The notes under the pieces are model-generated. The model ran no database searches and was not told the DNA's origin. It saw only the letters and a list, made by a program, of their open reading frames with translations. A stretch of DNA of 63,450 bases, counting the filler, from Hausera hauseri (taxonomy: Eukaryota): assembly GCA_046269625.1 (NCBI GenBank). It is 13 parts of 13 records of this genome, joined end to end, with 100 filler letters (N's around TTAATTAATTAA, not from the genome) between each part and the next. Parts side by side here need not be neighbours in the genome. Positions count along the whole stretch, not along the records: positions 17,295 to 23,398 come from JBJURY010140427.1; 12 more parts are not named here. One strand, written 5' to 3'. Positions 4,113 to 40,650 of this stretch are shown here, piece by piece (within the stretch, counting starts at the first letter, position 1; each line of letters begins with the position of its first letter). Position numbers and translations under genes: made by a program.

Positions 4113-4700
4113 ATAAAAAAGAGCTGCCTTTGTATTTCCTGCTTCATTATTGCTACATTGTTGATATTCGAACGCAGGTTAAAATGCAAAAAATCTCATT
4201 AGTCAAAGGAATCAAAAATGTAATAAAAAATAGATAAAATAGAAAGATCCAGTGAAATTGTAGCAATCAAAAAGGAAACATTTGCATCGATGTTAAAGAA
4301 AAAGCAGGATTTGCACCACGTAAAGCGTGACTACTATCCAAGCAGAAGAACAGATAACCGAATGAATGGAACAAGGAAAGCATTACAAAATCCGAAAAAA
4401 TCAATCGACCAGAGTTTCCCAAGACATTGGTATATTGGATATGTTCTGATGAGGAACACATAAATCGAGAATGTCCTAAACAGAATATCAGATATTAGTC
4501 TTGTCAGAAAGAAGGTCACTTTAGTCGAAATTGTTAGAATAGATGCATCAGAATATACCATGCCTGCAAAGGAAGAAGTTATTTCAGATCAAATTGTCCG
4601 TATGTCGATGTTCCACGTGTAACATGAATGGGCATTTTGGATACAAATGCAGAAGGAAAATATCAGTCATCAACCACAAACCCCGAAGCTGTCAAGGATA
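4113..4700 (+). pseudogene. Decayed retrotransposon Gag C-terminus with four CCHC zinc knuckles
   Basis: Translations WICSDEEHINREC, SCQKEGHFSRNC, HACKGRSYFRSNC and CSTCNMNGHFGYKC between about 4435 and 4655, with stops and frameshifts. Confidence 0.75.
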
Positions 4701-5059
4701 CAGATTTCCCAGATGATTCCTATGAATTTTGTTGTTATAATCATTCGACAGACAGATATCAGAATTGTTTTGATTGACGCTTACTTTCGCTTCGATCATG
4801 TTTTACAAGATTCAAAATATCGAAATTAGGTTCATTTCGTTTTTTGGTTTCGGTTAGTTCGAATATTTTTAGGCAGAATTTGACTGGAGATTGAATAAAT
4901 TTATAATTAAATCCTATATGAATAATTTGATCGAGATCCAGAAAATTAGAAGTCATAAAAGTGTTATTTAAATCTCACACCTATATGTTGAATATTCAAA
5001 CAAGGAAAATCACTATATAATTTACAAATATTTTCTGAAATTTTTAGATGGGCCAATGT

Positions 5060-7260
5060 GGGCACCACACCATCTATCCAGATTACTGTCCTTGGTATTA
5101 CTTTACCACCGTCTATAGTAGTTATCAGAGCTTCTTTTGGAGTCGAAAAATAAAACATTAGTTTCATGTTTCGAATCATAACTTTCTACTTCACCAGGAT
5201 AGTATATATCTACATAATTGTTGGTAGTGAATTGTTGTTGTTCTATTGGATATTCATTCCATCTTTTTACTTGAGGAATATCTGCTAACAATGTCCTCCG
5301 TTTCTTGCTTCGAACGGTGATTAAACTCCGTATCTTTTTTGTATTCAAGGATGAATTTGATTGAGACTTAGTTTTCTTTATTTTCTGTATTGGAGGTATA
5401 TCTTCATCATCATTAGAATTTTTTTGTTTCCATTCAGCGTCCTTCTTTATTAGGAAACAACTAGCTAAGAATGGAATCAGAGCATACATGATTTTACATG
5501 TTCATCCGGCAGCCTGTTTTATGCCATAGCCTTGTTTTATGATAGTAAGAAGATAGCTTTTACAAAGGATCCTAGCCATCCAGAGTTAAATTGACAAAAC
5601 CACATGTACCATCCCCGTTCGGTAACAAATATATCTCTAGTGATTCGTTTTGCGTAGTCTGGTCCCACTAGGTTTTCCCAATTAGCTTTTTCGTCATGGT
5701 CGGCTGGTACTTTCATAGCTATTTCTGTTAGGACTTTTTGTTTCTGCTGAGGGAACATCATCATTCTTCTGTGATTTTTCATATATTGTTCAGTATATAC
5801 GCCCATCTTTACCAAGCCTGTGAGTCGCTTATATGTTTGTTCGGTCTTTAAATTGAATAAGCTGACTTTTCGAGACGGTGAAATCTGCTCCTATTTAGGC
5901 ATTCGCTCCCAAAAACTGTCGCTCGGTCGAAATGTTGGCCACATGGTATACGTACAATTTTAGTATAAGTATGGTTTTTCAATAGGGTCCAACAATATTC
6001 GAGTAATCGGTTGTAAAAATCTTGGCTTTTTATTATACCAAACTGGTAGTTCCATGATACAATCATTAGTTGGTCTTAACTTGATAGTTACTCTCGTACA
6101 TTCAGAAGTTACAAGGATTTCTCCCACTGTTCGCGCAAATTTTCCTTCTGCACCAGGTAATTCATCTGGATCCTTTACTATTCCGTTACTGTGGACAGAT
6201 ATGTTCTGTTTTTGATTATTTCTCTGTTTGGTTTGCAATCGTTTAATATCATTTCTCGATACATTGTATAAATATTCTCTTGTTGACAGTGATAAATGAA
6301 ATTAATCTTGTTGTCAAAGTATCGGTGTGGCTTTACTTCCGATTTATAAATTTTCTTTATTCTTCTTTTATTTCAAAGGCGAATATTCCTTTCTAATTCG
6401 TTCAATATACCACTTTTCACACATTTTGGTATCATTTTCTATTTTGAATCTCATTCCTTCACTTGGATCTTCTGAGTATACTATAGTTGAAGTTTCGATC
6501 GTATCCGATACTCGATCCAATGTGCTTTTTGATATTTCTTCTTTTTACATTCGTCCTTTTGTTTCAAAGAATTTTTCAGTTCTCTATAAGGCTAACTGAC
6601 ATTGATCCTTTTCAACTTCATGCGCCATTATCGATTCACCCGTATCACATTCTTTACTTTAATGACCACATTCAAGGAATATCATCATTTTTACTGATGA
6701 TAATTCAAAAAGAGCATTATCTTCACTTAGCTCGACTTGGTAGTCCTCAATGGCTATTACCTTATCCAAAACTTCACCGTTTATATTGTAAGATTCTCCC
6801 TTACAATAGCCTGTCTTATCAATTGGTCCGGCTATGAAAATTCTCTTGCTGCTAACTTTTCGTTTTTGAGCCTTTAACCGAATGCCTCCTATGTTAATTT
6901 GTTTCATCACAAAAGCTTCTATGCACATCCATTTACTTATCAGAAGTGATTAGTATGGGGTTGATGGCTCCACTATGGCTGAGTTTGTGCCAGTAGCTGT
7001 AAATAAAGTGGAAGTAGTTTTTTCGCACAAGGCATTCTTTCACTTTAGTTTTTACAAATTCTGATTCTTGGTAAACATAATATTCTTTATGGGTTGTTGC
7101 AGTTAATGATGTCGGAGTAGCGTACGGGCATTTTTCTATATCCTACAGAGAATGTCGGACCTTCCTTAGCTTGACTACAGTCATAAGCACAAAATTAAAT
7201 TGAAGTAATGGTAGAATTTTAATTACCCGAAACAGATCAATATCTGACTGTTGATTCTGC
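5060..7260 (-). mobile_element. Retroelement copy 1: decayed class III (chuvirus/gB-like) glycoprotein, TM region, cytoplasmic linker and start of protease (truncated)
   Basis: AYDCSQAKEG...EKCPYATP...YQESEFVKTKVKECLVR; IAGPIDKTGYCKG; GKFARTVGEILVTSECTRVTIKLRP..CIMELPVWY...PITRIL; GVY...MMFPQQKQ; ALIPFLASCFL. Colinear with the copies at 18595-20409 and 46836-48600. Confidence 0.85.
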
Positions 7261-7299
7261 TATCTTGTTTTACCGGGTGGAGTGTAGACCTGCAGCTTG

Positions 7300-8290
7300 G
7301 GGCGCCACCACAATTTTCTCGTTTAATTTTAGCGCTCAACTCTTTTTAGACAATGGTCTTTGCCTCCCAGTCCTTGTTTGCTGTTCCCGCGAATCTGGTG
7401 GTCTGTCGACCCAATTTTGCTTCGATTTGCATCATTATCCTGATCGCAAGGATAAAAACCCAGATAATCCTGACGTGTTCAGAACTTCTTGACAATCAGA
7501 TTGAATACAGCAAATCAGATGGCACAACAAATAAAACTGTTGGAGATGTAGTATTCAATATAGAATTAATGCGGGATTCACAAAAGGAACCTGATTTAAA
7601 ATCAAGAAATAATATGAAGCCACTAAAGAAGCTAATAAAATAAAATTCTGAAGAAGCTCTCGACAAAATTTTAATGTCATTCAAATCCACCGTCTTTCGT
7701 TACATTTCATCGGAAACCTTCAAAATGCGTCAAATAGAACAGGACCCGAAACTGTTTCTGAAATGATTTATTCGCGAGACAACGGTCGCGAAAAAATTGA
7801 CAAAGCATATCCAAAATAATAAAAATAATTGCCAAATTTGCTGTTTGTTGCCGAGGAAAACAGATTTCAATTCCAGTTACATTTATCTGGGTTTGGTGAA
7901 CGATGCGGTTACCGTTTTCGAGGTGCCAGTTTTTTCGACCACGTTTGGTCGAGATTGGCACCACAATTTGTACGTATTTGCCAAAATGGAACCGAAAAAT
8001 GTTACCTGACAGCAATAGAATTCTGATGATTTGACAACTGCGTTTTTCGCACAATACGGCAAATGCAACGATGGGAGGTAAACACGGGCATCGGCGGTTG
8101 ATTCTGTAACGAGAAAGCCCGTACTTGTTTTTAATGAATTATAAGCAGAAGAATGGGCAACTTCTGTTTTGGAATATAGAACACTGGAATCATCTTCATT
8201 TTCATAATCATGAAGTAATCTATCAAGGTCGCTAACAAATTTTTCCATATTTAAAGAAATCTGCGTGTCTTTTTCTGGCACCAATTGTAA
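7300..8290 (-). pseudogene. Possible decayed host gene with a Rubicon/DEF8/PLEKHM-like Cys-rich domain
   Basis: Weak colinear echoes only (AVVKSSEFYCC..NCG, VTGIEICFP..ANLAII, YALSIFSR, RKTVDLNDIKIL); many stops. Confidence 0.25.
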
Positions 8291-8844
8291 ATTGATATAA
8301 ATATATCAGTCGACACGAGACGAGAACAATGCCGGTATAATTCAAAAAGTGATGCCAGATCCAAACAACTAATAGAGAAGTATCAATCTCGAAATCCACA
8401 AATCGAAATCGCAGTAATAAATTCAAAATGAAGTCGATTATTGTATTCAATATTAAATTACAAGTTAAAAAAGCAAAACACATTTACATTATTCAAACAA
8501 AATTTTTTATCTATATACATATACAGCATAATACATCGTAAAGTTCTTAATCCGGCAATGCACTAGAATGGAATCCGTTAACGATATTTTGGAAATGGCG
8601 TTGGAATCTATTTCCAAAAATTTATCGTTCTATCGACAATTGGAAATAACAAAATGACTAAACAATTGGAAAAATAAATATATCAACCAAGATATAGGAA
8701 ATACAATGGCAAGAAAATTTTGAATCATTAGTGTTTCAGAACAGNNNNNNNNNNNNNNNNNNNNNNNNNNNNNNNNNNNNNNNNNNNNTTAATTAATTAA
8801 NNNNNNNNNNNNNNNNNNNNNNNNNNNNNNNNNNNNNNNNNNNN

Positions 8845-11800
8845 CCTCAAAGAACTGAATCGATGTGCCGTTGGAAAGTTTGTGCTGCCTTCTTTAAATC
8901 AAACGGCATGAATGCGTATTCGAAAAGACCAAAAGGTATTATAATGGTAGTTTTTGGGATGTCTTCTAATGCTACGGGTATTTGGTGGTAGACGTCTTCA
9001 AGATCTATAGTCCATAGATTGTTGTCTTGTGTAATGAATGTAATATATACTTAATCAAAGATAGAGGATAATTGTCCATGGTAGTTACGTTATTAAGTTG
9101 GCGATAATCGCCGTATGGGCGCAATGTGCCGTCTTTTTTGGGACGACATGGAGTGGTGATACCCAAAGCGATTTCGAGCGTTTTATGATTCCAGCTTGCT
9201 CCAGTGCAGAGAATTCCGCTTGTATTACGTGTCGCCGGCGTGGTGAAAGTTGGCGGAGTTTCTGCCTAACGGGCTTAGGATTTTCTGTGATGATATGATA
9301 AAACGTCGTGTTAGCCGGACGGAATGGTGGATCTTTTTTAATTGTATGGAAACAAGACTTGACTAAATATTGTTTCATTTTCTGGCTAAGTGTCGTAAAG
9401 GCTGTTGTTGTTACGGCAGTGGAGTGATTGGATTTTGTGTGAGAAATGCTAGAATTCGGGTCGCCTAAATCGTCCTTGTCAACTCTTTTTGTTACTCTAT
9501 TACCGGACTGCAGAAAAAACGTTGGATTGTTTATATTGGTATTAATGGCGTTCTTATTTGCGTTGGCTGATGGTTCTTTTAATATCGATTTTATAGGCGA
9601 GATAGGTTGCATGATTAGTTGGTTATTTGCATAGGTCGGTTTTGTTGAACTGCTTTTGATGATATAACGTTGACTACAATCTACAAGGAGGTTGTAGAAA
9701 GATAATAAACCAGACCCAAGTATTGGAGATTGTGTGTCGGCAACGATGTATATCGAATTGATAATGTCGGAGAATGGTGGTAAAGTGAATGAAACTTTGG
9801 ACGTGCTGAAAATGCGTAAAGCTTAGCCATTAGATGTGTACAATTTGGTGTTAGGTGGAGAAATGGATATTTTTTATGGATGGTGGTAATAAAGAAACAG
9901 CTGCCCCAGAGTCAATTAAAAAGTTGATTGATTGATTGGATTAGGAAGTTAAAGAGGTTTTTAATGTAAAAACTGCATAAGTACGACTATTATGAAGAAA
10001 ACCTTTGCCCGTGTGAGCATATGCCGAAACATCTGACGGCTTTATGCGTTTTTTGGAGGCACGGGATTTATGTTGTTGGAAGGTGTATGATGTGATGGAT
10101 TAAATCTGTTAACAAATGTGCAACCTGTAACGCAGTTCTGTGCTTTAAAATTAAAATTATTATGATATGTGCAGATAATATCGTATCGTTTGAAACGGAG
10201 AGCATAAAATCTGCAACCTAAGATCATTTAGTCGATTTTCTTTTGAATTTAGTGTGGTAGTAACAACCATTGATCGTGTAGGTGACCTTGCATGCCTTCA
10301 ATTTTGAGATGAAATGCGGCTATGGTTCGCATCGAAACGATTTCGTCTAGGCGTGGTCAAAGCTTCGATTTTTGACGTGAGTGCAGAAATTGCTTCATGT
10401 ATGTTGGCGTTTTCGGCACGTAAAGAATTTCTGTGAGTTCAGATTAGATATGTTGCTAGATTGTTGAGTTCTAGGTGCTTGTAACGTAGCGGCTACTAAT
10501 AGGGATGCATGTGCATGTAACATTTCGTGGCTTTTGTCACCAAGTTGTGCTAATTTTTGTAGTGATGATGTGTCCTTTACTATGGTCAGCAGCGCACGTA
10601 TGTTTTTGGGTAAAAACCGCAAACAATACCTCTGTAGTAAATCGGCGTTATTTGCTTGATTAACGCTAAGAGTACTCAATTGAGTTAGTAAGATTTGTAG
10701 AAATTCTGAGGGTTTCAATTTGCATATGGTGTTGTCGTTAAAATATTTATCGATGTTATCCAGAGATGGTTCGGTGATTTTTAAAATTGAGTTAAAAGTA
10801 TTTTGTATGGGTCACTACTTTGGAAAATTTCCGACAAATTGGGAAGCTGCGACTAAATGTTGGAAGGCAGAAGTATAAGAAAGCTGTTTGCTTTAAGAAA
10901 CCAGTCGACAATATTATTTGACTTCAACCAAGCCGCATGAAGGTCCAACCACGTCCGGCTGGAGTGTTGCTTGTCGACGAAGTATTCTACACAAGGTAGA
11001 TTTACAGTAGACGACGGAGGTAGAGGTGAATTTAACGGTACACTTACAGTAGGAATGTCGGAAAAGTTCTGTTGGTCCTTAGACGATGCTTTTGAATCAG
11101 ATTCACCTAGCAGACGGTAGTGTACGGTGAGTATAGGTGTTGAAGATGACTGGGTATAACTTGTTATAGTGTCGGATTGTCGGAGAAAAAATCCATTATA
11201 ACTAAGGCGAAAATTAGCGAGAGTTGTTTGTCGCCGTAACGTGTCTGAAAAATTTGCAATTGTTGTTGATTTGTGTATGTAGTAAGTTTGCGTATGCTTA
11301 TTTTCGAATAAGACGAGAACGAAAATGTCACATAGGTTGGGCGTGCAGTGTGGTGCATAAGACACGGGGGCGCCCAAAATCACTGCATTGTAATGACCGA
11401 TCTTACTGACCTGGGAGATCATAGGCTTGATTTGCGATGATTCAATTGATATATTTTAACCAACGGTATAGTACCAATTTGTCTACCACAGACAATAGGG
11501 TAATTCGAATAAGAATCAGAAAGTGATGTATTGACTAAAATAGGACATAGGTTTGATAGTTTTTCGACAGCTTTGTATGTTATACATTTGGAAGTGTGCG
11601 TAAAGGGTTCTTTGGTTTTTCTCACACATTCACAGTATAGAAGAACAGTTATCGCGTGGTGTATATCATTACTTAGTTTATTAGGTACAGTCAAATTTGT
11701 AAAACGTAACTGAATTAACTACGCTGAGAGATATTGAGTGCAGCGATTAAACTACTTTGGTCGGCATTATTTTACAAATTGTTACGAAATAGAAATATAA

Positions 11801-17194: not shown

Positions 17195-18594
17195 NNNNNN
17201 NNNNNNNNNNNNNNNNNNNNNNNNNNNNNNNNNNNNNNTTAATTAATTAANNNNNNNNNNNNNNNNNNNNNNNNNNNNNNNNNNNNNNNNNNNNGAAAGG
17301 AGAAGAAAAGAGGAAGAAAGAAGAGTAACCTCAGTACACCCTCATTTGAAGGTCAAACTACACCAATATTTAATGAAGCTATATTAGAAAAAGTAATAAA
17401 GAATCCAGGTGTATATCTAGACGAAGATGGTATTATTCAAGCAGTAATGACTGTCATTCCAAATAATATAATTAATATAGACAAAATGACTGCTGCGATG
17501 TTGAAGGTAATTACTAATAAAATAACAGCGGAAAGGATAAATGAAATTTTGGCACAATTGGTATTATTAGCACAAGATACTAGTCCTTAGAGAAATAGCA
17601 AGGACAGTGTTAACCAAAACTGCTGAAGATGAGATAGAAAGAAATGAAACTATCAGAATAACGGTGAAAGAAGGAAACCAAGATATGAGGGTCATCAGGA
17701 TGAACGAAACAGATTACATACAAACTCTACGAGAAAAGATAGAAGAGTTGGAACCATTTTAGCAAGGGAGTCCTAATGGATAAAATTATTATAGAAGGAA
17801 ACTATATAGCTATGATAAACTATTGAAAATTGGATGCAGAAATGAGAACTACAATCCGAAAGCGATAACAGAAAAACATCCAGAGGAGAAAATACAGGCA
17901 ACAGTGGATAATATACTAAGAGAAATGGAACCGCAAGTAGGACCTCCCCCAGGCGATACACGCAAGACGTTACAGTCCAAACAGAAGTTAAGAGAAGAGG
18001 TAGACCAAAAGGAACGATGATACGTGACATTCGCAACAGAAAAGACCAAAACGAAAAAATAGTAAAACGTTTATTATTAGAAGGAATAAACGTTACTCCC
18101 AAATCGGTGGATATAGACCCATTATTAAAAACTCTACTAGCTAAGCTACATACGTCATTTGCCTCATTTGATATGCAGGTAATAATCCCAGACAAATTAT
18201 TCACAACATTACGTAATGGTATGCTACGAATAAGTAGAATCTAGACGAAGAACGGATAAATGAAATACATGAATTGGATATTTTAGAAAAGATGATGGCA
18301 ACCGGAATCACGCGAGAGAAAGCTCAAACGGCTATATCCTATCTTCTATACAAAATAATAGTAATTAATTACCAAACTCAAAATCTAGAAATTGAGAGTA
18401 ATATGAAGACAGCCGTAAAGATTTTGAAAGATACGTTAGGAAATTGGGTTGAATGAAGAGGTGGATGGCTGACCAGCCTAATGACCTATATATTGAGGTC
18501 AGGTGAACGAGAAAGAATAATAACTACGCCAACTGCGACGCAACCAAAAACCTCCAGACAAGGTATAACAGGCATGTCAATAATGGAGATTCAA

Positions 18595-20409
18595 TAACGT
18601 CATTATTAATGCCAAAGGCCGTGGGAGTAGTGGCTTACGATTACTCTAAGCCTAGCGAAGGACAAAAATATTCTCTAGTTGATTTAGAGAAGTGTCCAGA
18701 AGCCGACCCGCAACAGCTAACAACGACAAGTGGTCCTACATACTGTATATATCAAGAATCTGAATTTATAAAAGCGAAAATTAGAGAATGTTACGTAAAG
18801 AGATAATTCTTCCTTTTTAATTGTGCCTATTACTCTGGAAATTCGGCCATAATCGAACCCACAACACTTTTCGAACCGATAATAATATCACGAGCAAAAT
18901 GCCAGGATGCTTTTAAAATTGGCATAATAACTATTCAAAACGCGCATATATCGGCAGTTCGAAACAGAATAAAATACACCAGGATTTTCAGGGCAGGAAG
19001 AATAGATAAAACGATGCAAGGCACCTGCAAAAAAGTAGATTATGACGTTGGAGGTACCATCGCACCTAGAACGGTAGCCATAGAAGATTATCAAATCCAA
19101 ATGAAAGAATATGAAGGATTATTTGACTAACAAACGAATTTGATGACGACTATGGGTGAGTGTGAATATGATAATGGTGAATGCGATACTGGAGAGTCGA
19201 AAATGACATGGGGAACCTCTGCAAGTAAATGTCAGTTGACGCTATTAAAATAAGGAAAATGTAATAAAACAGTAGGAAAAACGGCGAAGAGACAGCGACA
19301 TATAAAGAAGGAATAAAGGAAGTCAAGATGACGGAAGTGGCTACAATTGTATACTCAGAAAATCCAGAAGAAATGATGCGATTCAAAATCACTGGAATAA
19401 TAAGTGTAGCGAAGAAATATCGAGAACAAACTATACGGGTATTTTCTTATCATAAAAAGAAATACCTGGAGCAAAAACGAAGATAGATAAGAAAGATATA
19501 AAGCTAACGCAATATTTCGATAATAAAATTGATTTTTTAATCAACTATGTACAAAAAGAGATTAGAGGTTTATACCGAGAAATAATAATAAACGAATGAA
19601 AATTAAACTACGAAATAATACGAAATAAAATGGCCCTGATAATAACAAACCCCGACATGGTAGTGCCAGTTATGCCCTTTGGCGACGGAATTATTGGAAA
19701 AGTAATGGGTGAGGTATTGATAACAATAGAATGCAAGAAGGTAGAAGTATCAATCAGGCCAATGGACGAATGTACAATAGAGTTACCCGTAGTCTATCAT
19801 GCAGAAGCGAGATATGTGATGCCAGTAACCAGAATACTATTAGATATTAATGTGAAGCCTAGTCCACTATACAATTGCACCTTCAATAGGTCGCCAATGT
19901 TTAAGATCGATAACGGCAAATGGATTAGAACACCAAAAAGAGAACCAGTGTCCAAACCGGAGATATTAAACTTGATTAATTTGCAGATGAATCAGAAATT
20001 TGAACCGTTAACAGGAATATCACAGGGAGGAATTTACAGACAACAAAATCTAGAATATTACCGACGAATGTTGTTGTTTCCCCAACAGAGACAAAGGGTT
20101 ATAAAAGAATTAACCAGGAGAGTAATGTAGGACGGAAAAGGATCACCATAAAGGGAAAATCTAATGGGCAAGGATTATTTAAAGAAAGTAACAAGAAACG
20201 TTATGAAGATGTGGAGAAAATTTTTATATTTTGGTAAAGCAGCATCCGGTTTTCTAGCCATATATTTTATTATTAGCGCAATACGGACAGTATTTACGGC
20301 ACTAGGTAAGGCATATGTAATACATGCAGCAATAGGATGCTCATGGAAAATTCTAATAGCCGTAATACCGGCAGTAGCGAGTTGTTTTCTAGCAAACGAG
20401 GCACGATAA
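18595..20409 (+). pseudogene. Class III (chuvirus/herpes gB-like) envelope glycoprotein
   Basis: ITSLLMPKAVG|VVAYDYSKP..QKYSLVDLEKC; GIIGKVMGEVLITIECKKVEVSIRPMDECTIELPVVY...PVTRIL; GGIY...LLFPQQRQ; hydrophobic ASGFLAIYFIISAI and WKILIAVIPAVASCFL. Confidence 0.85.
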
Positions 20410-20642
20410 AAAAGAAGATATTTCAAAGGAAAAACAGAAAAAATTCCCCGTATAGTATACCTGATAATAACGATATCGAACATGATCAAGTAAAAGTAAA
20501 GGCAAAGCACAATCGAATAACTAGTATTAAACAACTAGCACTGAAGTCACGAAAACAGAAGTACAGACAAAAGTTTGTAACGGAGTTACCACATCTAAAT
20601 CCCGCAGATGAATATCATTGACAATTATATAAGGAACAACCG

Positions 20643-23398
20643 TTGGTGAACCCCTCAGCTTCTCGATACGTAATGTATACAGGATTGTACCCTATACATC
20701 AAGTACAACAGATGAAACAAAGTGTTGACTTGACACCCTATAAATACGAACCTACATGTAAAACTGATAATAAAGGCAAACGGCATCTACTTATAAGACC
20801 AGAAATAGAAATAGAGGTGAATGGATATCCAATGATGGCCCTGTTAGACACTGCATCTACAACAACGATAATGGGAAGGAACCAATTACCAAAGGAGTTA
20901 AAAAGAAAATTACGAATACCGACAACTACATTAATAAATGTAGGAGCATTCGGCACAGAAGAGGAAATTAAGATGGTCTTAGATGCCTGAATTAAGATCG
21001 GCAAACAAATTTTGAAACATACTATAAGGATAGCAGATAACTTGACTAATGAAATTTTAATCTGGTGTGATATATTAAACCAATTGGAAGATGTCTACAT
21101 AGATGAGAACATGCCAACTTAAGATGTTCGATAAAGACCGAACTGAGGGAATGGTTTCACTAAAAATGGACATCACGATCCCACCGCGATCCGAGATAGT
21201 GGTACCCGGAAAGATAGAAAGTCAAGCATTACCGGAAGATATTCACTTTGAACCATTCCCACAAGTTATGGAAAAATATGAAGCCCTAATCGCCCCTCAT
21301 GTAGATAAAGTAATGGATGAAAAAGTCCATTTACGAATTTGTAATACGACAAACAAAGAAAAGCAATTACAAAAGAATACTAGACTGGGAAAAGTAATGA
21401 CCATCGAAGAAATAATAATACAAGAAATCTGCTCGACAATTTCAGACGTAGATAAAATAGAAAAAATAATGACAGAAAAACTGAAGAGGGAACCAGATGG
21501 AGATAAAGCAAGAAATAAAATCACAAGTATTAACTGGAATGAAAAGTTACAGAAATGCGAAATCTTACCTAAGTAAGAGAAGAAGATGCTAATCGAATTA
21601 CTGGAAAAGAATAACAATCGATTTTCTCAAAATGATTATGATCTGGGTACAATGAATATAATACAACATACCATTAAGTTAAAGGATGGACAAGATAAAT
21701 CAATCAAGAAAAGACCTTATCGATTAGCATACGATAGAAAACAGGAAGCACGAAAAATAATAAAACAAATGAGAGAAAACAAGATAATTCGACCAAGTTG
21801 TTCCTCATGGACAACTCCAGTGGTGATGGTAAAAAAGAAAGGTGGAACTGAGATTTTCTATAGACTATAGAGCATTAAACGAAATAGCGAAGACAGATAC
21901 GTATCCATTACCAAGAATTGACGAAATACTAGATAAAGCACATGGATCAACAATATTCTCAACGATTGATTTACAAAAGGACTACTGGCAAGTGGAGGCC
22001 AAAGAGGAAGATAAACCAAAGACGGCGTTTTCAATCGTAGAAGGGCTATGAGAGTTTAATAGAATGCCATTTGGATTAAAGAACGGACCGCTAACATTCT
22101 ACAGAGGGACAGAACTCCTGCTATTATATGCCCCACATGACATGGTGTATATTGATGACTTAATAATAGCATCACCGAATTTTCGACAACATCTAAGGGA
22201 TCTACAAGATCTTTTTGATAGATGCAAAATAATGGGTCTAAAGATAAATCCAAAGAAATGTTCATTTGCTCACGCGGAAGTAGATTTCCTCGGACATAGA
22301 GTAGACAAACATGGTGTAAAACCCCGGAACAGACTTTTAGGAAAAATAAGAGACTTTCCGAAGCCAGGTACAGTTAGGGAGTTATGTCGATTCTTAGGTT
22401 TGGCAAACTATTATCGACGGTTTATAAAGGATTTTAGTAAAATTGCGAGACATCTGTACGAACTATTACAAGAAGACCTAGACAAAATTATCTGGACGAA
22501 TGAATACCAGAAAACTTTTGAATATTTAAAGGATAGACTATTAACGGCCCCATATTGATCTATCCTGATATGACCAAACCATTTATCGTGGCAACAGACG
22601 CAAGTGATTACGGAGTAGGAGCCGTATTATCACAAAAGGGCGAAGACGGAAAGGAACACCCAGTAGCTTATGCTTCACGAAAACTCAATAAACACCAGAA
22701 GAAATATGCGGTGATAGAAAAAGGACTATTAGCAGTAATATTTAGCTATAGAAGTATTTTCACCGTATATCAGCGAAAATAAACCACTTTTAATTTATAC
22801 AGATTACAGGCAGCTTTAATGGCTAAAGCAGCATGAGAATCCGAATAGCAGACTTCTACGATGGGCTCTAAAGTTACAGCCTTTTACGCTTAATTTCCAG
22901 TATAAACCTAGATCACGAAACGCAAATGCGGATTGCCTATCTAGAATACCTAATAATCCAGAAATAGAAAAAGCAGTAGTTGCAGCCGCATTCAGCATTG
23001 ATGGATTCGTAGAAAAAATTAAGGCGAATCAAAATGAAGACGCTGAAATAAGGGCCATTCGGAAATACATAAGGGACAAAACCATACCGGATGATAGAGA
23101 ATTAACCCGCCATTTGGCCCGATTCAGTGAAGCTTACGAAGAAAGAGAGGGATTTTTATATTTTATTCATCAAAACGGACCTGCCTTAGTAATTTCTAAG
23201 AAAAATAGAGCAGATCTATTGACCCAATACTATGACGGACTACTCGGAAGACACAAATCAACCAGTAAGACAATTAATAAACTGAAACGTAAATACTTTT
23301 GGCTGACGATGACAAAAGATGTACAGGAATGGTGCGACAGTTGCAAATTATGTGCTACCCGGAAGAACACGGGATCAAAACACAAAGCACCACTTAAA
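20643..23398 (+). pseudogene. Ty3/Gypsy Pol: aspartic protease, RT, RNase H, integrase N-terminus
   Basis: ALLDTAS; SSWTTPVVMVKKK, IDYRALN, YPLPRIDEILD, MPFGLKNGP, VYIDDLII, FLGLANYYRRFI; TDASDYGVGAVLSQ; integrase H..KYFW..M..DV...CDSC..C. The RT-RH-INT order is Gypsy-type. Confidence 0.95.
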
Positions 23399-24217: not shown

Positions 24218-24899
24218 GAACATACAAAATTGAAGTTCGTAAGGGTTGACTGATTTAATAATGGCTTTGTATTAAAATTAGCCGGTTTATTTAAGATGTG
24301 TAATTTTAAGTTTTACATGTGACTATTCCTGATAGTGCCAAAAAAATTTTAATTGCAATGTTGGAAAAGATTGTAACACGCTAATGGACATTCTATAATG
24401 TAAAACCTTCACATTTAGAAATATTACTAAGTTGATGTCATAAGGAATTTTTTCAATTTGAGGGAATCACATTTATCAATTAAATAAAGTTACCAATATG
24501 AAGTGATAATACATCATACCAAGTGAATTTAGTATCTGGTATGTATAGCAGGTATAATTATTGTTAGTAGAAACTGAGATCTTGTAGAGTTCCACAATAT
24601 AAAGTTTGCAGGAATAAGAAAACTAAAATGTAACGTTTACCAGTTTAATTTCATGCCATAATATTAGTATCTAAAATAACTAAATCAGTTATGAATTACA
24701 TAAATTTGATATATTCCCTTACATTTTACAGATGTACACTGGCAAATTATGCTTATTACGGATAAATTCAATGATGTATGACAATTAATATATGGTAAGT
24801 TGAGCATACTCCTCAAGTGAATGAGTGGCTTATGGTTCGTGTAAATTGGGAACACATTTCCTTCGAGAAAGTATCTGAAATGTTTGACGCTGAGAATTA

Positions 24900-27580
24900 T
24901 AGCTAGTAATTCTCAATTCGAAAGTTGAGTAGCGTTGCTCAGCCTAGTTGAATTTTGTGGGAAAAGAATTCAATCGGAGCATTTTTGCCATCGACTGATT
25001 AAGCTCGCGTGGAGCCTGCAGCTATTATGGATGCATCTATCGTTAAAATAAACGGTGCATCTCGTTTCGGACAGTCTGGTATAGTATAGTGTAGCATAGA
25101 GTCTTTTCATAAACAAATGCTTGTTCAGCCTTATTTGTCTGGTTTATCTAAAATTTCTTAGGTCCCTGTCTTAGAGCAAACAGAGGTGACAAGATTTCCG
25201 AGCAGGGGAAATGTAGGGATGGCAGAAATTGATCGTGCCAAGGAAGCTGCGGATTCCAGTCACGGTGGATGGCTTCGGTATTTGTTTGATGGAAGAAGAC
25301 CGTGACCACGTGGTGTTAGTTGAAGTCCGAGAAATACAGCTTCTGTTTTGAGAAATGGACATTTGTTTGTTTTCACCTGTAGGTTGTTTTCATTCAATCA
25401 ATGAAATGTGTGTTGAAGGTGCGTTTTATGAGTCGCTTCATCAGATGATGCAATCAATATGTCATTTATATATGTAATTCCATACGGCATATTTATGAGG
25501 ACTTGGTCGACGTGCTGTTGGAATGTTTGACTTGCATTCTGTAGACCGAATGTCATACATAGGTATTCAATCAATCCAAAAGGCGTTATGACGATTGTTT
25601 TTGGAATGTCATTGGTGGCGACGGGGGTCTAATGCTATGCTCTTTCCAGATAAATTGCGCTGAATATTACTGCGCCGTGTAGGCGATGAAAAATATCAAT
25701 TACCAACGGCGTTGGGTATGAGTCTTTGACGGTGACATTACAAGGCCAGTACGAATCGTTATTTGTGAATGACATGTGCAGTGATGATGCCCATGGCGAT
25801 GTAGAACGGCGTATGATACCTGTTTCTTTTAGGTGTCGAAATTCAGCTTCAACGGATACTCAGTTGACAGGGTTAAGCTCCGTTCGGGGTTGTCGAATTG
25901 GACAATCACATAATGTGACAAGAAAGTATAATGTTATCACACCTTTCTGTGTTGGTTGTGTTGATCGTTTCAACAAGTTTTGGTATTGCAGTTTGGGATT
26001 TGAAGTTTTGATACCAGTGGCAGCGTTTATGGTTGGTGTGAATGCAGGTGGAGGTAGCGGATTGCTCCCGCTGATGAGCTGTTGATTTCGGCAATCGACA
26101 ATTAAATCGTAATGATCTAAGAAATCGGAATAAATAATTGGTTGCGTGACGTTGGCCAATATGAATAACCAAGTGTATGGTCGGTTATGTATACACTTGT
26201 ATAATGTACCTGTGGTTGTCTTTCGTGTGCCGTTGGCAGCTTTGAATGATGCGCGGGAGACCATAGTAGGTCTATGGTATGCGCTAAGTATCAGCGATAA
26301 AGCTGCACCAATGTCGATTAAGAAATCGAGTGTTTTCGGGATGTCAGAGTGTTATGGCTCTGCTCATGACGCAAAATAACATTCTCGACGTGATCGCTAT
26401 TTTTGTGCGGCAGTTGTGGTGATTTGGTTCCCAGCCGACGTGCTGGTGGTCGTCTGGGCTCTTTTACTTTTTAAGGGCTTATTAAATTTGCAGCCGGGTC
26501 GATAGATTTTTGCATCTGTATTAAAATTATCCTGATAAATGCAAGTGTATTGCATTTTTATACTTGCGAACGGTTTGTCTAATAGACAACCATAATAATT
26601 GTGACGATATAATCGAAAACTGAAACTTTGAATTTAAATTAAAAGCAAATTTAAAATTTAAATAGAAACAAACCACAAATTTAATTTAAAAGTTTAGTTT
26701 TAAAAGTTTAATTTAAATTGAGTGTTTCAGTAAATTTCTTTTGAAATGAGAATTTTAAGATAATAATCAAATTTTCAACAACTGGTGTTATCTTTCCAAT
26801 GAGTAATACAAACGGTCAAATTCGGCTTTTGCGGATATATCAGGGGGCGAGAATTTTTCAACCAAACCCAAGCTGGGCAACGAGGTTGACGGAGTGGACG
26901 CGCCCGCTGCTAACAATATTATTTTTTACGGACTAGCAAAATCGTGTATGAAAGTAGCAAATTTATAAAACTTTGCCATTTTAAAAATTTGCTTTCGAAA
27001 TTGACGTCGAGATGACTGTTTGTCCCTGGTCAGCAGATTCTTGTGCGTTACAAGTGCTTGCAGGGCAGCAATAATTGTGTACAACTGATTTTGCTGGGTC
27101 GATGTGACGGAACTGATTTTTCCGCACGTGTGTATATGTGGATGCTTCGGTGTTTTTAGTATACTCATATATTTTATCGCCTTTCGATACCATATGGTTT
27201 AATATGGTATCGGACGGTAGTAACACAAGTGCCTCTTAGATTTTGCTTAATATGTGCTGGTTGTTTTTAAGATCCAATTCAGCGTTGCCAAATCTGGGCG
27301 CAACATTTGAAGCTGAGCACAAGGTTTAATGTTCCTTGTTTGTCGCTTGGTGAATACCAGGTTGAACTGGTCTTGTTGTGATGGCAGATATGCTTTGCAT
27401 ATGGCTTCCTTGATTTTCAAACGGCTTTTCATTTGACAGCAATGTGTAGAGATCCATTACTGCTGCAAGCGTTGTTGGTTGGAGGTATTGTATTAGAGTT
27501 AATGTCAAATTCAGGATGTTCTGACAAGGATGAATTGTTTGCTGACTGAAAATCGTTAATGCGGGAACAACCCTCAAAAT
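24900..27580 (-). mobile_element. Decayed Ty3/Gypsy retrotransposon (Gag, PR, RT, RNase H start)
   Basis: Gag KPCAQLQMLR; protease FLIDIGAALSL and FILANVTQPII..DFL; RT SPWASSLH, PFGLIEYLCMTFGLQNA, YINDILIAS; FLGTINF; IDASIIAAG. Confidence 0.9.
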
Positions 27581-27891: not shown

Positions 27892-30283
27892 TCATTCATA
27901 CCGACACCTGCAGCTCTGTAGCAGTCTCTGGCAGTAGTGAATGTAAAAAATAATAACGATGAATACTGTTTTCTTTACAGTATTCTGGTGGTACTGAAAT
28001 ATGACAAAGTGGACAGACATAGTGCATCTTGTCCAAAACAGCGTCAGAAATATTTTTCCGAATTGGATTTCGATGAAAGCTGGATGCCGATGAAACTAAA
28101 ATCCATTTCGGCTTTTGAACGGCATAATCCGACATTGGCAACCAACGTGTTCCTGTACAACACAATAGCAGAAATACCGGCAGATGAAATTTACAAAAAT
28201 CCTCATAGAGATAACCTATCGTAGTCGGAACCCAAATGGCCGCTCAGTAAACTTGCTGCTACTGGAATAAAAAAGAAAAGTACCATTATGTTGCAGTGAC
28301 AAATCTAAACAGACTACTGAACATGGAGCATGACCATTTTTTCCAAAAACGGATATAGTGTAAATGATGTCCTGTATGTCTTCATGGATTCAGGTCGGAA
28401 ACAACATGGGCGAAACATGTAACTCTGTGCAGACAAAATTCGCCAGGAACCAAAATGTATGTTATGCCCGTCAAACAGGAACTCAGGTTCACTGATTGGT
28501 CAAAAACAGACAGTTCGGCATATATAGTATATGCCGACATCGAAGGTATCTTACCACGGCACAATATATATGACCAAAAACATGTTCCAATCGCCGTCGG
28601 TATGTTGGTTGTACCAATAAAAGCCGCAGGTCAACCTCAATATTATGTTTTCCACGGATGGGATTCTGTACGCGATTTCTTGCAGTAGTTGCAAACCATA
28701 GTGGAAACTGAAATCGCACCCTGGTACAGTAGAAATAGCAATAAACCCTTGATGTGGACAGATGAAGATGAACGCCTGATGTTTGCAGTCACAGATGAAT
28801 GTTACCTGTGCCACAAAATATTACCGTTTGACGCACTGGAACGGCTCGTACAGGATCACGATCATTTTACTGGTCAATATCTCGCAGCAGCATGTAATTC
28901 ATGCAATTTGGCAAGGCGTGTGCGGCCATTCTTACCGATGGTATTTCATAACTTCAGGGGTTATGATTGTTACCATATTTTGAAATGGACAATAAATGGA
29001 CTTCCGCACTGGTAACTATCCATAATTTCGACTACGATGGAAAAATACCTGTCACTGTCTGCTCGTATAACCCGGTTCCAGGTACGCTTGCTTAATTCAT
29101 TGCAGTTTCTCAATGAATCATTGCCTTGACAGATTTGCTGATAGCACTAACGCAGTTCCAGCACATATTGCACGCATCAAAGGCATATACCCATATGAAT
29201 TTGAAACATCGTATGAGCGACTCCGGACAGCAGAGGAATTACCGCCGCACTGGATAAGTATCGCAGAGGATGAATACCGGAAAGCACAGAGGTGTTGGAC
29301 AGAACTCGGCTGTAGAAACATGTTAGATTACATGCTCCAGTATCTTAAACTGAACGTGTACTTATTAGCCGATGTGTTCCAACCCTTTCGAGAGAAAGAG
29401 TTGACTTAAGATAGGCTGGAGCCACTGAACTTTTATTCCATACAGGGAATGAGTTGGGCGTCAGCTCTAATATTACTGGATCGAGACACTGAGCTGCTAC
29501 AAAACCCGGAAATGTGTCGGCTGTTTGATGTTGGTATTCGTGGTGACATGACATTTGTCAACAAACATCAGGTCAGTGCTTCCGATACTACATCACTGCT
29601 GTAGACTGATATCAATCTGTACGGCTGGGCGCTTTCGCAACCCTTGCCGTACAATTCATTTGAATGGGTTGTCGACAGACAAGATCTGGGCGACACAATG
29701 GTCAACCTACTACGATCAGACATGGCAGACTCAGTCGGATACCTGATGCAAGTCGATCTCGTGATACCAGATGAGCTGCATGACGTTTTGGACGATTTAC
29801 CGGTCGCACCATTTAACCAATGTTCGCCAGGCTCAAAAATGAAGAAACTGCTCACGACGCATGAACCGAAGCTGAATTACATGGTCCATTGGCGTCTGCT
29901 ACAGTTCTACATGCAGCTCGGTGTACACGTCACACAGGTGCATCGTGCAATCCGATTTGCTCAGGCTCCAATATTGAAGGTGTGCATAGATGGAAATTCA
30001 GAGAAACGAGCCGCAGCTTGTGCAAATTTCGAAAAGGACTACTACAAGCTGAAAAATAATTCTCTGTACGGAAAAACAGTGAAGTATCTGAAAAAGCGGC
30101 TAAATGTACGCATATGCAATAGCGAAAAGCGGTTGGTCACGTACACGAGCAAGTCACTTTGTACACGTTGGTCACGTACAAACACGTATACACAAGATAT
30201 CGACCGTCATGTCAGGTGGTCAATGCACATTGCCTATGGATTGGTTGCGGTGCTGTTAAACAGAGAATAAATCGTTCTGGAAC
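27892..30283 (+). pseudogene. Polinton/adintovirus-type protein-primed family B DNA polymerase (with endonuclease VII-like insert), copy A, 3'-truncated
   Basis: NVKNNNDEYCFLYSIL; ExoI VYADIE; EndoVII-like DHDHFTGQYLAAACNSCNL; ExoII FHNFRGYD; KGIYPYE; motif A region NLYGWALSQPLP; motif B KLKNNSLYGKT; many stops. Confidence 0.9.
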
Positions 30284-33282
30284 CGCCGAAACTGCGCCTT
30301 GCTGGTGTATATAACCAGACACTTTTCACTGTTGCACAGGCGCATATTGAGCCGCTTTTCAGATTTTTCACCGTTTTTCCGTACAGAGAACTGTTTTTCA
30401 TCTTGTAATAGTCATTTTCGAACGTTGTACAAGCTTCGGCTCCTTTCTGTGAATTTCCATAAATGTACGCCTTAAATATAACCTATTAATTGAATCGGAT
30501 AGCGCGATGTAATTGTGCATTGTGTACACCGCACTGCATGTAAAATTGCAGCAGACGCCAATGAACTACGTAATTCAGCTTGGGTTCATGCATCATAAGC
30601 AGCTTCTTCTCCTTTGAGCTCGGCGGACATTGGCTGATTGTTGCGACTGGTAATTTGTCCAAAACGTCGTGCAGCTCATCTGGCACTACGAGATCGACTT
30701 CCATCATATAGCTGATTGAGCTGTTTAATGCCGTAACTGCTTTCGAAAGATTTTCCATTATGTCGTACAGTTCTTGTCTGTAGACTATCCATTCGAATGA
30801 ACCGTACGGCAAGGGTTGTGAATGTCCCAGCCGTACAGGTTATTAATATCAATATACAACACTGACGTTGTATCATCACTGGTTACGTTATCATTGTTGA
30901 CAAACGTCATGCCGCCACAAATACCAACATCGAACAATCGGTATATTTCCGGGACTTGCAATAGCTCAATGTCCCGATTTAGTGACATTAGTGCTGACGC
31001 CCAACTCATTCCCGGTATAGAGTAGCTCGAAATGTCTGGAACACGACGGCTAATATGTACACGTCCTGTTTCAGATACTGGAGCATGTACTCCAACAAGT
31101 TTTTTGCACCTGAGCTCTGTTCAGCATCCCTGTACTTTCTGCCATTCCACTTTTGTTATAGCAGAGCATTGCGGCGGCAATTCTTCTGTCATCTGAAGTG
31201 GCTCGTACGATATCGCAAAGTCATACGGGAATATGCCTTTGCTACGTGCAGTATGTGTGGGGAACTGAGTTGACGTTATCAGCATATATAGTAAGGCATA
31301 TACTAACTTTGCCAGTGATTAATTGAAAAGTTGCAATGAATCAAGGAATCGTACCTGGAACCTGTTTATACTAGCAAACAAGGACAGGTACTTCTCCATT
31401 GTTGTCGGGATTACTGATAGTTTCCAGTGAGGAAATCCATTAATGGCCCACTTTCAGATCTGCTGACTGTCATAATTTCTGAAATTATGAAAGATAATCG
31501 GCAGGAATGATCGCACAGGCCTTGCTAAATTGCATGAATTACATGCTGCGCTCAAGTATCGATCGGTAAAATGATCATGGTCCGGTACGAGTCGTTCCTG
31601 TGCACCAAACGACAATATTTTGTAGCACAAATAGCATTCATTGGTGGTAGCGAAAAGCAACGGTTCATATTCGTCTGTCCAAATCAATGGCTTATTGCAA
31701 TTGTTGCGATACCACGGTTCGATTTCCGTTTCTACTATTGCTTCCAACTGGTGCAGGTAATCGTGTATACAGTTCCAACTGTGAAACGTGTAATACCATG
31801 GCTGTCCTGCGGCTTTTATTGGTACAACTAACATACCGACGGCGATCGGAACATATTTTTGGTCGTATATATTGTGCCGTGGTAGGATTTCCTCGATATC
31901 TGTATACACCACATATGCCGGACTGTCCGTTTTCGACCAGTCACTGAATCAGATCTCCTTTTTGACTGGTATGACGTACATTTTTGTTCCTGAGCAATGT
32001 TGTCTGCATAGCGTCACACGTTTGTCCCATGCTGTTTCTGACTAGAAACCATGCAAACATATAAGACACCATTTACATCGTATTTGTTTCTGGATGAACT
32101 GATCATGGGTCATGTTCAATAATCTGTCCGAATTTGTCACTGCCACATAATATTTTTCCTTTCTCTCTAACAATAATAAATATATTTGGCGTCCATTTGG
32201 GTTCCCACTTCGGTAAATTATGTCCACATGTGGGTTCTTGTAAATTTCTTCATCCGTCGGTATTTCTATTATTGTATTATACCGGAACACGTTTACTGAC
32301 AGTGTCGGATTACGCCGTTCAAATGTCGGAATTAGTTTCAATTTCATCGGTATCCAATCTTCGTCAAATTGCAATTCGGTGAAATACTGTCCATACTGAT
32401 TTGGACGATTTGCATTGTGCCTGTTCACTTCGCTTTACTTTAATACTGCCAGAATACTGTAAAGGAAACAGTATTCATCATTATTTTGTACATTCACTAC
32501 CGCACAAGACTGCTTCAGAGCTGCAGGTGTCGGTATGAATGACCGGCCAGACAAGTAAATTATGTCATTCGACTTTGTAATGATAAAGCCGAAAGTGACA
32601 ATTTTTATAATTTGCTATTCACTACCCTTTTCGGTGTAGTTGACAATTTTTCATCTAGCTTTTCGCCTACCTCTGTGATAAAGTCTTCTGAATACTGCAC
32701 GGTTGGATGTGGCAGGTACCACTGTTTCCTGTTACCTTGTAGATTGTCGAATTCTGAAAGTGCGTAATACTTCAATTTACAGTGTTGCTGTTGATGTTGG
32801 AATTTCTTCACTTCAGATTCCAACCGGTGGCTTACACTGGACGGTACATGCCTCAATTCTGTTTTGTTCATGCTGACGTACAATCTGTTCAGAGCGTATT
32901 TAACAATAATGTCGGATTCCTGCTGCTGTTGTTTCTGTTCTTCTTCTTGCTGCTCGGTACTGGTTCGGGTGTATTCGTCAAGACTTATTGAGGCCTTACG
33001 TTTCCTACTGGTTGTTGAGAGGATGCTGCTTTTTGTTGCATCCATTAGTACTTGTTTTTTCGACCGCTTAAACTGGTTTAAGTGGTTTTTGTGCTCGTTG
33101 AAAAATTGTACATAGTTAATTTGTTCATTAAGTATTGAACAACCGGGGAAAATATAGGCCCGTTTACCGTGCGCCGTTGTGACGCTATTGTATTGTTCTA
33201 TTCTATTATGGCAATCATCAACGTCATACACCTTACCACTAGTGCAATACTGTGGACATGTAGGGCAATGCACAGTCATCAT
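30284..33282 (-). pseudogene. Polinton/adintovirus-type pPolB, copy B (with N-terminus), convergent with copy A, 3'-truncated
   Basis: Same motifs on the minus strand: SFIPTPAAL, CFLYSILAVL, VYTDIE, DHDHFTDRYLSAACNSCNL, FHNFRNYD, LYIDINNLYGW, SLYGKT. Confidence 0.9.
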
Positions 33283-39939: not shown

Positions 39940-40650
39940 TTATACATTAAAATCTAAAGAAAAACGTGTTTGTTCAAAGTGTTCATTGTGGGTCATTTTT
40001 AAAATTTCAATGGTTCGGTTGGTCACTGATTTTAAATTTTCTATTGTATCTGAAAATATGCGAACAGTTCCAACAATGTGAAACATCACTGCTTGAATGT
40101 ATTGATCATTTTTGACACCACTTAGTTTACTATTTGGATAGTAAACAAGTGTACCTTTGTCTTTACCTCTATCTTTCGTTTGTCCATCATCATCATTATA
40201 TTCCATATATTCCTGATCGTGCCAATCACCGTTATATATATTTTGAAGATTTAATTTAAACGGCAATCTAAAATATCCAAAAATATTGAATATTTTGTAG
40301 CCTTTGAATTTTATTTTATAGCCACGCTCAGATACCTTTTGTATTTTTCTAGCAATTGCTCTTGCACCCATCTTTGCATCAGCAATTGACTTTGCTCCTC
40401 TTATTAACATTTTCCCATTGCTAAATATTTGAGCCTGTTTGAAGCGTAAACCACTTTGCTTAAATTTTTTCGTAATGAGTGGTTCACGGATTTCTACAGA
40501 AACGTATGAACCGTAAATTCCATCGGAATGTAATTCCGTATTGGCTAATTTAAATGCCAGTTGTTTAATGTTAATTGGGCAAGATAAATTGACGCTTGCA
40601 TTTACATTACAAATTTTCAGCTTTAACGTATCTTCACTGTTTTGATTCAT
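39940..40650 (-). CDS. Intronless divergent TATA-binding-protein family member (TBP/TRF-like), 236 aa
   Basis: ICNVNASVNLSCPINIKQLA...IREP...AQIFSNGKMLIRGAKSIADAKMGARAIARKIQK...KFKGYKIFNIFG...PFKLNL aligns with TBP core repeat 1 and the start of repeat 2. The ORF is intact from ATG to stop. Confidence 0.9.
   Translation of the reverse strand: MNQNSEDTLKLKICNVNASVNLSCPINIKQLAFKLANTELHSDGIYGSYVSVEIREPLITKKFKQSGLRFKQAQIFSNGKMLIRGAKSIADAKMGARAIARKIQKVSERGYKIKFKGYKIFNIFGYFRLPFKLNLQNIYNGDWHDQEYMEYNDDDGQTKDRGKDKGTLVYYPNSKLSGVKNDQYIQAVMFHIVGTVRIFSDTIENLKSVTNRTIEILKMTHNEHFEQTRFSLDFNV

Follow-up and report, generated by a model that had tools for sequence, protein, structure and literature searches.

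Can the envelope gene of a Ty3/Gypsy retroelement lie inside the polyprotein, ahead of the enzymes? The question is raised by a 63,450-nucleotide stretch of DNA from Hausera hauseri (assembly GCA_046269625.1; hereafter "the window"), in which contigs of 4-6 kb are joined by N spacers. Three of these contigs carry one copy each of a retroelement: copy 1 at 4113-8744 (minus strand), copy 2 at 17295-23398 (plus strand) and copy 3 at 44915-49356 (minus strand). The three are very probably decayed Burro-like Ty3/Gypsy elements, likely planarian, with an envelope glycoprotein (Env) of the glycoprotein B (gB)/chuvirus type situated 5' of protease, reverse transcriptase, RNase H and integrase (PR-RT-RH-IN), and likely with all of these parts in one polyprotein. 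The window copies themselves are broken and inactive; they are new, dead and diverged members of a layout that has already been published.

Anatomy of the window copies

Copy 2 displays, on one strand, a helical domain, a signal-like segment, the glycoprotein, a transmembrane (TM) helix, a linker, protease, reverse transcriptase, RNase H and the H2C2 finger of integrase. A first-pass annotation of this DNA had claimed the full order through integrase, and the claim stands up to the H2C2 finger, but the integrase core is absent from the contig, which ends at 23398. On the Gag side, 17411-17927 comprises a decayed spacer and a possible ubiquitin-like region, colinear at 28-32% identity with residues 378-549 of a relative designated P0016. 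The ubiquitin match of P0016 itself (residues 473-522) is weak (E 0.03), and copy 2 is colinear there at 32%, with stops; colinearity of the two extends from this spacer to mid-Env. The next segment, 17975-18483, is the predicted Bcl-2-fold domain, which lies in two frames (37% and 57.5% identity to P0016 578-666 and 674-753, respectively; Pfam Bcl-2 E 0.04) and ends in what we take to be a BH2-like motif.

The internal signal-like segment of copy 2 was located by translation at 18555-18632, in the position held by a hydrophobic segment before mature Env in the relatives. A signal peptide had been claimed here; the segment is in place but is degenerate and split over two frames, the clear example being that of copy 3. 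The class III ectodomain follows at 18633-20238, with several stops and frame changes, and is identified by PF24664 on two pieces (E 1e-30 and 1e-3) and by tblastn to P0016 and a second relative, P0004; the glycoprotein match as a whole spans 18609-20394. Translation of 20239-20400 reveals a TM helix (approximately 20239-20301) and, after it, a second segment that is only weakly hydrophobic (approximately 20341-20397), beyond which lies a linker of about 130 codons (20401-20798) with one stop, one frame change and no internal repeat. Of the enzymes, the retropepsin protease occupies 20799-21101 (Pfam RVP E 7e-5; E 4e-16 with a profile from the relatives), and a broken stretch at 21115-22880 contains the PR-RT spacer, reverse transcriptase from about 21830 and RNase H at about 22570-22880 (Pfam RVT_1 E 3e-15; tblastn to P0004 1188-1726). 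The spacer aligns with the relatives, and when a dUTPase-like region was looked for in it no Pfam match was found. The H2C2 zinc-binding domain of integrase is at 23195-23368 (PF17921, E 1e-16).

The same order had been reported for copy 3, and it is there: upstream domain, signal segment, glycoprotein, TM, linker, protease and the start of reverse transcriptase, within which the contig ends. The helical upstream domain (48600-49109) shares its reading frame with the signal segment and Env, and the single frame of 47988-49109 bears out the observation that the passage from upstream domain to glycoprotein is open in this copy. The signal segment (approximately 48545-48599), a class III ectodomain interrupted by a single stop, and the TM (approximately 46863-46928) together span 46863-48599 (PF24664, E 4e-15 and 2e-37), and the linker, a protease in two frames (46079-45775), the spacer and the start of reverse transcriptase make up 44915-46862 (RVT_1 E 8e-8; tblastn to P0004 1212-1456). 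Copy 1 is heavily decayed and has nothing left but signal segment, Env, TM and linker (5103-7292; PF24664 on two pieces, with 54-71% to P0016 Env). It had been described, over 5060-7260, as reaching the start of the protease; the four parts just named are present, but no protease match was found, and homology to P0016 begins only at 7292. The copies were rightly called clearly diverged, as they are separate subfamilies whose mutual BLASTN matches extend over only 40-90 nt.

Sequences matching copy 2 at 85% or more were found in 17,814 contigs of one public run (mostly at 85-95%), a figure that gives no copy number and is not independent support. The same run, which may derive from the source sample, is identical to copy 2 over 344 and 296 bases, and the abundance of contigs fits an old, large family.

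The glycoprotein as a class III fusogen

Judged from its modeled structure, the window glycoprotein is a class III fusogen, as the first-pass annotation had maintained. It is recognized by the Pfam family Monjiviricetes_fusion (PF24664), and the model of copy 3 Env (pLDDT 88) matches both chuvirus G and herpes gB. When a profile of copy 3 Env with 78 homologues was compared to PDB, all 37 matches were to herpesvirus gB (best E 5e-4). Foldseek comparison of the model with BFVD returned chuvirus and related glycoproteins, chuvirus G being best at E 5e-34, and a wide VIA-align search of solved chains placed gB at ranks 1-5 (herpes simplex virus (HSV) gB with Z 10.2, root-mean-square deviation (rmsd) 9.8 and 433 aligned residues), the next non-gB chain having Z 6.2. 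A baculovirus F-type identity was rejected.

In the eight relatives that retain the Env N-terminus there is an internal hydrophobic signal segment and an ectodomain with 14 cysteines; no furin-type site was found in these eight. Insertion energies on a rough scale could be scored for nine of 12 relatives, all nine of which show one strong TM after the ectodomain (-0.1 to 2.3 for this first segment) and a weak second segment (5.7 to 13.9). A second true TM, which would place Pol in the lumen, was rejected on these rough energies for the nine. The distance from TM to protease motif in the relatives is 117-366 residues.

Intact relatives encode a single polyprotein

Evidence for a single polyprotein comes from the relatives. 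A HMMER search over 1.84 billion proteins gave 670 matches at E ≤0.001, many of the best being long proteins, and 19 of the 670 were scanned for domains. The protease follows Env in the same open reading frame (ORF) in 10 of the 19, with P0008 as an eleventh at E 0.002, and five go on into reverse transcriptase. Env-PR-RT-RH-IN is encoded by one unbroken ORF in P0002, P0004, P0013, P0017 and P0152 (4,844 residues), and Gag or a CCHC zinc knuckle precedes Env in P0007, P0015 and P0016. The earlier proposal of an ancestral single polyprotein is thereby well supported for the lineage, in whose intact members the one ORF is seen directly; the window copies, all of them broken, would have shared that design.

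A quick Env tree is consistent with this placement. The three window copies group with the Env-first polyproteins, apart from glycoproteins of about 650 residues, at an SH-aLRT support of 86, which is below the tool's mark of 95. The tree has 56 rows: 131 of 151 matches had enough coverage, all top matches and every third of the rest were kept, and P0016 and other short fragments were dropped. One of the full polyproteins, P0004 (HBK71150.1), is recorded under a Flavobacteriaceae metagenome-assembled genome as a hypothetical protein; bacterial origin was rejected, contamination of the bin by eukaryotic sequence being likely. A word-based homolog search with an Env piece among longer proteins found nothing, and a metagenome locus scan with P0016 confirmed none of its 43 pattern matches.

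Some of these ORFs carry arrays of retropepsin domains (seven in P0152, four in P0007 and three each in P0002 and P0003), certain of which lie after integrase; ankyrin repeats and a C2H2 finger are present in P0152 as well. P0002, P0004, P0152 and P0013 each contain, beyond integrase, a second domain flanked by hydrophobic segments (at 2485-2738, 2254-2568, 4361-4735 and from 2775, respectively), which suggests that the polyprotein includes another membrane protein.

The upstream Bcl-2-fold domain

The helical domain before Env had been left as an "unknown domain". On the model of its close relative P0016 it has a Bcl-2 fold. The P0016 model (pLDDT 67) retrieved only Bcl-2 family members at ranks 1-30 of a fold search, the best with Z 10.0 (rmsd 3.4, 114 aligned residues), a score short of the caution line that the tool sets at about 13 for helical folds; the first unrelated row had Z 5.7. 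Pfam Bcl-2 is matched by five of seven aligned rows, below the curated cut-off, and the domain profile matches Bcl-xL with an E of about 0.01. A BH1 signature is not visible in the alignment of the domain rows; a word-based homolog search with that alignment found nothing, and an Atlas search with the domain gave no usable match. No Bcl-2-like segment is apparent by eye in P0002, P0006, P0007 or P0008, and from sequence the segment looks like variable cargo. The domain corresponds to the Bcl-2-like motif already described for Burro (PMC6431247).

Reading frames between the parts

With P0004 as the yardstick, none of the stops has the same position in all three copies, and the breaks do fall at different places in each, as had been stated. 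The linker and the start of the protease were also correctly described as open, at 20622-20990 in copy 2 and 45876-46631 in copy 3. The passage from TM to linker in copy 1 is not open as had been thought: only the second hydrophobic segment runs open into the linker, and a frame change lies between it and the true TM. At the TM-to-protease junction of copy 2 a stop had been noted, and it is present, but there is a frame change as well, which had been missed. The stretch in which this break occurs is coding in copy 1 (E 1e-5 across it), where the linker that follows scores E 0.09. When copies 2 and 3 were each compared with themselves by BLASTN, no internal repeat was found, and therefore no pair of long terminal repeats (LTRs) lies within either.

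Comparison with known elements

The layout is already known, because Burro and the GAG-ENV-POL elements carry the same order (PMC6431247; PMC13524379). The design had been put forward as undescribed, a claim that must be withdrawn, since the architecture is catalogued as GYPSM1 in Repbase (2007), as Burro in PMC6431247 and as GAG-ENV-POL in PMC13524379. Burro (GYPSM1) is one ORF of 4,873 residues (Arkhipova and Yushenova 2019, PMC6431247, where Grohme 2018 and Jurka 2007 are cited for it) that encodes, in order, Gag, CCHC knuckles, MATH, Ubi/SUMO-like, BCL2, Env, PR, dUTPase-like, RT, RH and IN. Its Env matches mononegavirus fusion glycoproteins and is presented as the first case of an env placed in frame between gag and pol; for Dugesia japonica, decayed fragments with stops and frameshifts are reported (PMC6431247). 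The window copies share with Burro the Gypsy-type Pol order PR-RT-RH-IN (integrase being seen as the H2C2 finger only), a mononegavirus-fusion-related Env (PF24664) that in copies 2 and 3 lies 5' of the protease, and a BCL2-like domain directly before Env in copy 2 (the E 0.04 match, with 57.5% to P0016). In a comparison made by description only, the window copies are fragments, whereas Burro also has MATH, BIR and ankyrin domains, LTRs and a length of up to 30 kb (PMC6431247).

GAG-ENV-POL elements with gB-type ENV occur in Nematoda, Bryozoa and Platyhelminthes and are not monophyletic (Chary and Hayashi, 2026, PMC13524379). The Smed_errantivirus_1-6 elements of the same survey, which are of the HSV/gB type, share with the window copies the order, a gB-type Env and, by eye, motifs of domain I; they are intact and present in 1-215 copies, in contrast to the decayed window copies. 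Neither a single ORF nor Bcl-2 or processing is taken up in the consulted passages of that survey. The YQES motif is found in four of the 229 Env rows of the supplement to PMC13524379, all four from Schmidtea. The consulted parts of PMC10084718 and PMC12440569 contain nothing further on an Env-before-Pol order, and the whole word "Burro" is not in PMC8532177. Common to the window copies and HSV/gB-type errantiviruses is a class III gB-like ectodomain between signal segment and TM.

In BEL/Pao elements env lies 3' of pol, and P0028 shows Env after Pol. The window copies share the glycoprotein family PF24664 with Anakin and other BEL/Pao elements (PMC7642597, PMC12440569, PMC13524379). They differ in having env 5' of PR and a Pol with Gypsy-type RNase H and H2C2 finger, which rules out a BEL/Pao identity. 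Non-canonical endogenous retroviruses of nematodes are said to have a continuous gag-env-pro-pol ORF. Their ENV/POL order is flipped (Sacco et al. 2022, as cited in PMC13524379); the Env motifs of the window, in contrast, are absent from the ten nematode Env rows examined in PMC13524379.

Weighing the alternatives

Several observations weigh against the view that the window copies are Burro-like elements once encoded as one polyprotein. Across the entire span from Env to PR none of the window copies is open, and copy 2 shifts frame there. P0016, the nearest relative of copies 1 and 2, stops inside Env, and the junction of their own subfamily has not been seen intact. LTRs, Gag, element ends and the integrase core fall outside the contigs that carry the copies. 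The same Env family also occupies the usual position, after Pol, in three of the 19 scanned relatives (P0028, P0046 and P0064; E 1e-19 to 1e-24). The resemblance of six Schmidtea Env rows in PMC13524379 to domain I of the window Env was judged by eye only. As to the upstream domain, the fold-search score is under the caution line and the model is of P0016 rather than a window copy, and in copy 3 the domain has no Pfam match and 17% to that of P0016, so that a Bcl-2 identity is not seen there.

An alternative that we regard as very improbable retains the order but has Pol made by programmed frameshifting or readthrough after Env, with Env in excess of Pol in the subfamily of copies 1 and 2. Copy 2 does change frame between TM and protease, and copies 1 and 3 near the end of Env, as this would lead one to expect, but the changes are at differing places and copy 1 is open from its second hydrophobic segment through the linker. 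At least 10 relatives, moreover, are open from Env into the protease, and Burro is in frame (PMC6431247). About as improbable is a Burro-type anatomy in a non-planarian host, either as an independent lineage or as part of a wider GAG-ENV-POL lineage such as that of nematodes, bryozoans and other flatworms. That such elements are not monophyletic (PMC13524379) and that the relatives are metagenome contigs would accord with it; the Env motifs, on the other hand, agree with the Schmidtea rows but with none of the nematode or bryozoan rows examined, Bcl-2 before Env is a trait of Burro (PMC6431247), and GC content is 25-28% in the non-element contigs (at positions 39-45 kb) of a window that averages about 34%. 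Chance juxtaposition, by which a chuvirus-derived fragment or the 3' env of one element would precede the pol of another, nested or in tandem, merits almost no credence: all copies are broken and short and Env-after-Pol elements exist (P0028, P0046, P0064), but the order recurs in two copies that are diverged, no internal repeat is present in the short linker, and the match of copy 2 to P0016 stays colinear from the spacer on the Gag side through Env. Nested or tandem elements are effectively refuted by the single-ORF relatives.

Proposed topology and processing

If the window copies descend from Burro-like elements with one Gag-Env-Pol chain, the Gag, ubiquitin-like and Bcl-2-fold domains would be synthesized in the cytosol. 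Next, the internal signal segment would thread the ectodomain into the endoplasmic reticulum, where signal peptidase likely would cut and free the Env N-terminus, and the single TM would return the chain to the cytosol, leaving PR, RT, RH and IN there. Retropepsin would be likely to free Gag, RT-RH and integrase by cutting both cytosolic parts. With Gag at first held through the signal segment, and Pol through the tail of Env, all parts might be gathered at one membrane for budding. The cytosol-lumen-cytosol topology fits because the scored relatives have one strong TM and an internal signal segment. With a single ORF, Gag, Env and Pol would be synthesized in equal amounts as long as this is not altered by splicing, by internal starts or by turnover; we infer, as the first-pass annotation did, equal amounts of Env and Pol, anchoring of Pol and processing by signal peptidase.

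A bolder extension, possible but doubtful, is that the Env signal segment doubles as a tail anchor for the Bcl-2 domain. Cuts by signal peptidase and retropepsin would release an anchored Bcl-2-like protein in step with the fusogen, and the wider lineage, whose ORFs hold one to seven retropepsin domains and, beyond integrase, a second domain bounded by TM segments, would be a group of enveloped viruses with a polyprotein processed in the manner of flaviviruses. Were this true, the anchored, element-encoded Bcl-2-like protein would keep the infected or fusing cell alive. A published topology or processing model in which the Env signal segment anchors a Bcl-2-fold domain was not found in literature searches.

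A single membrane-threaded chain as the source of capsid, fusogen and enzymes is a break with the usual rule of a separate env, described in 2019 and surveyed again in 2026. To this the window fragments add three diverged, dead subfamily copies and evidence from structure models for the class III fold and the Bcl-2 fold. The intact Schmidtea elements are the better material for studies of particles, infectivity, processing and the role of the Bcl-2 domain.

Other features of the window

The contig at 49457-54756 (plus strand) has a decayed integrase, a protease-like domain after it (50359-50631), possibly a second degenerate one, and hydrophobic segments. It is colinear with P0152 3072-3367 and P0002 2030-2401 and, on sequence grounds, probably represents the 3' portion of a related element. 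The same contig contains an ORF of 576 residues (52742-54472, plus strand), for which Atlas offered weak helicase-like leads only, scoring below 0.85. Two further decayed Gypsy reverse transcriptase fragments, unlinked to Env, lie on the minus strand at 8850-9390 and about 24800-25990.

At 60376-61893 (minus strand) there is an open frame of 505 residues with no convincing Pfam match. The region 27952-32485 is a large inverted duplication, 76-85% complementary, with a weak match to DNA polymerase B2 (E 0.009) and a match to endonuclease VII, and is possibly Polinton-like. An unbroken ORF of 236 residues at 39943-40650 (minus strand) encodes a divergent TBP domain (E 6e-16).

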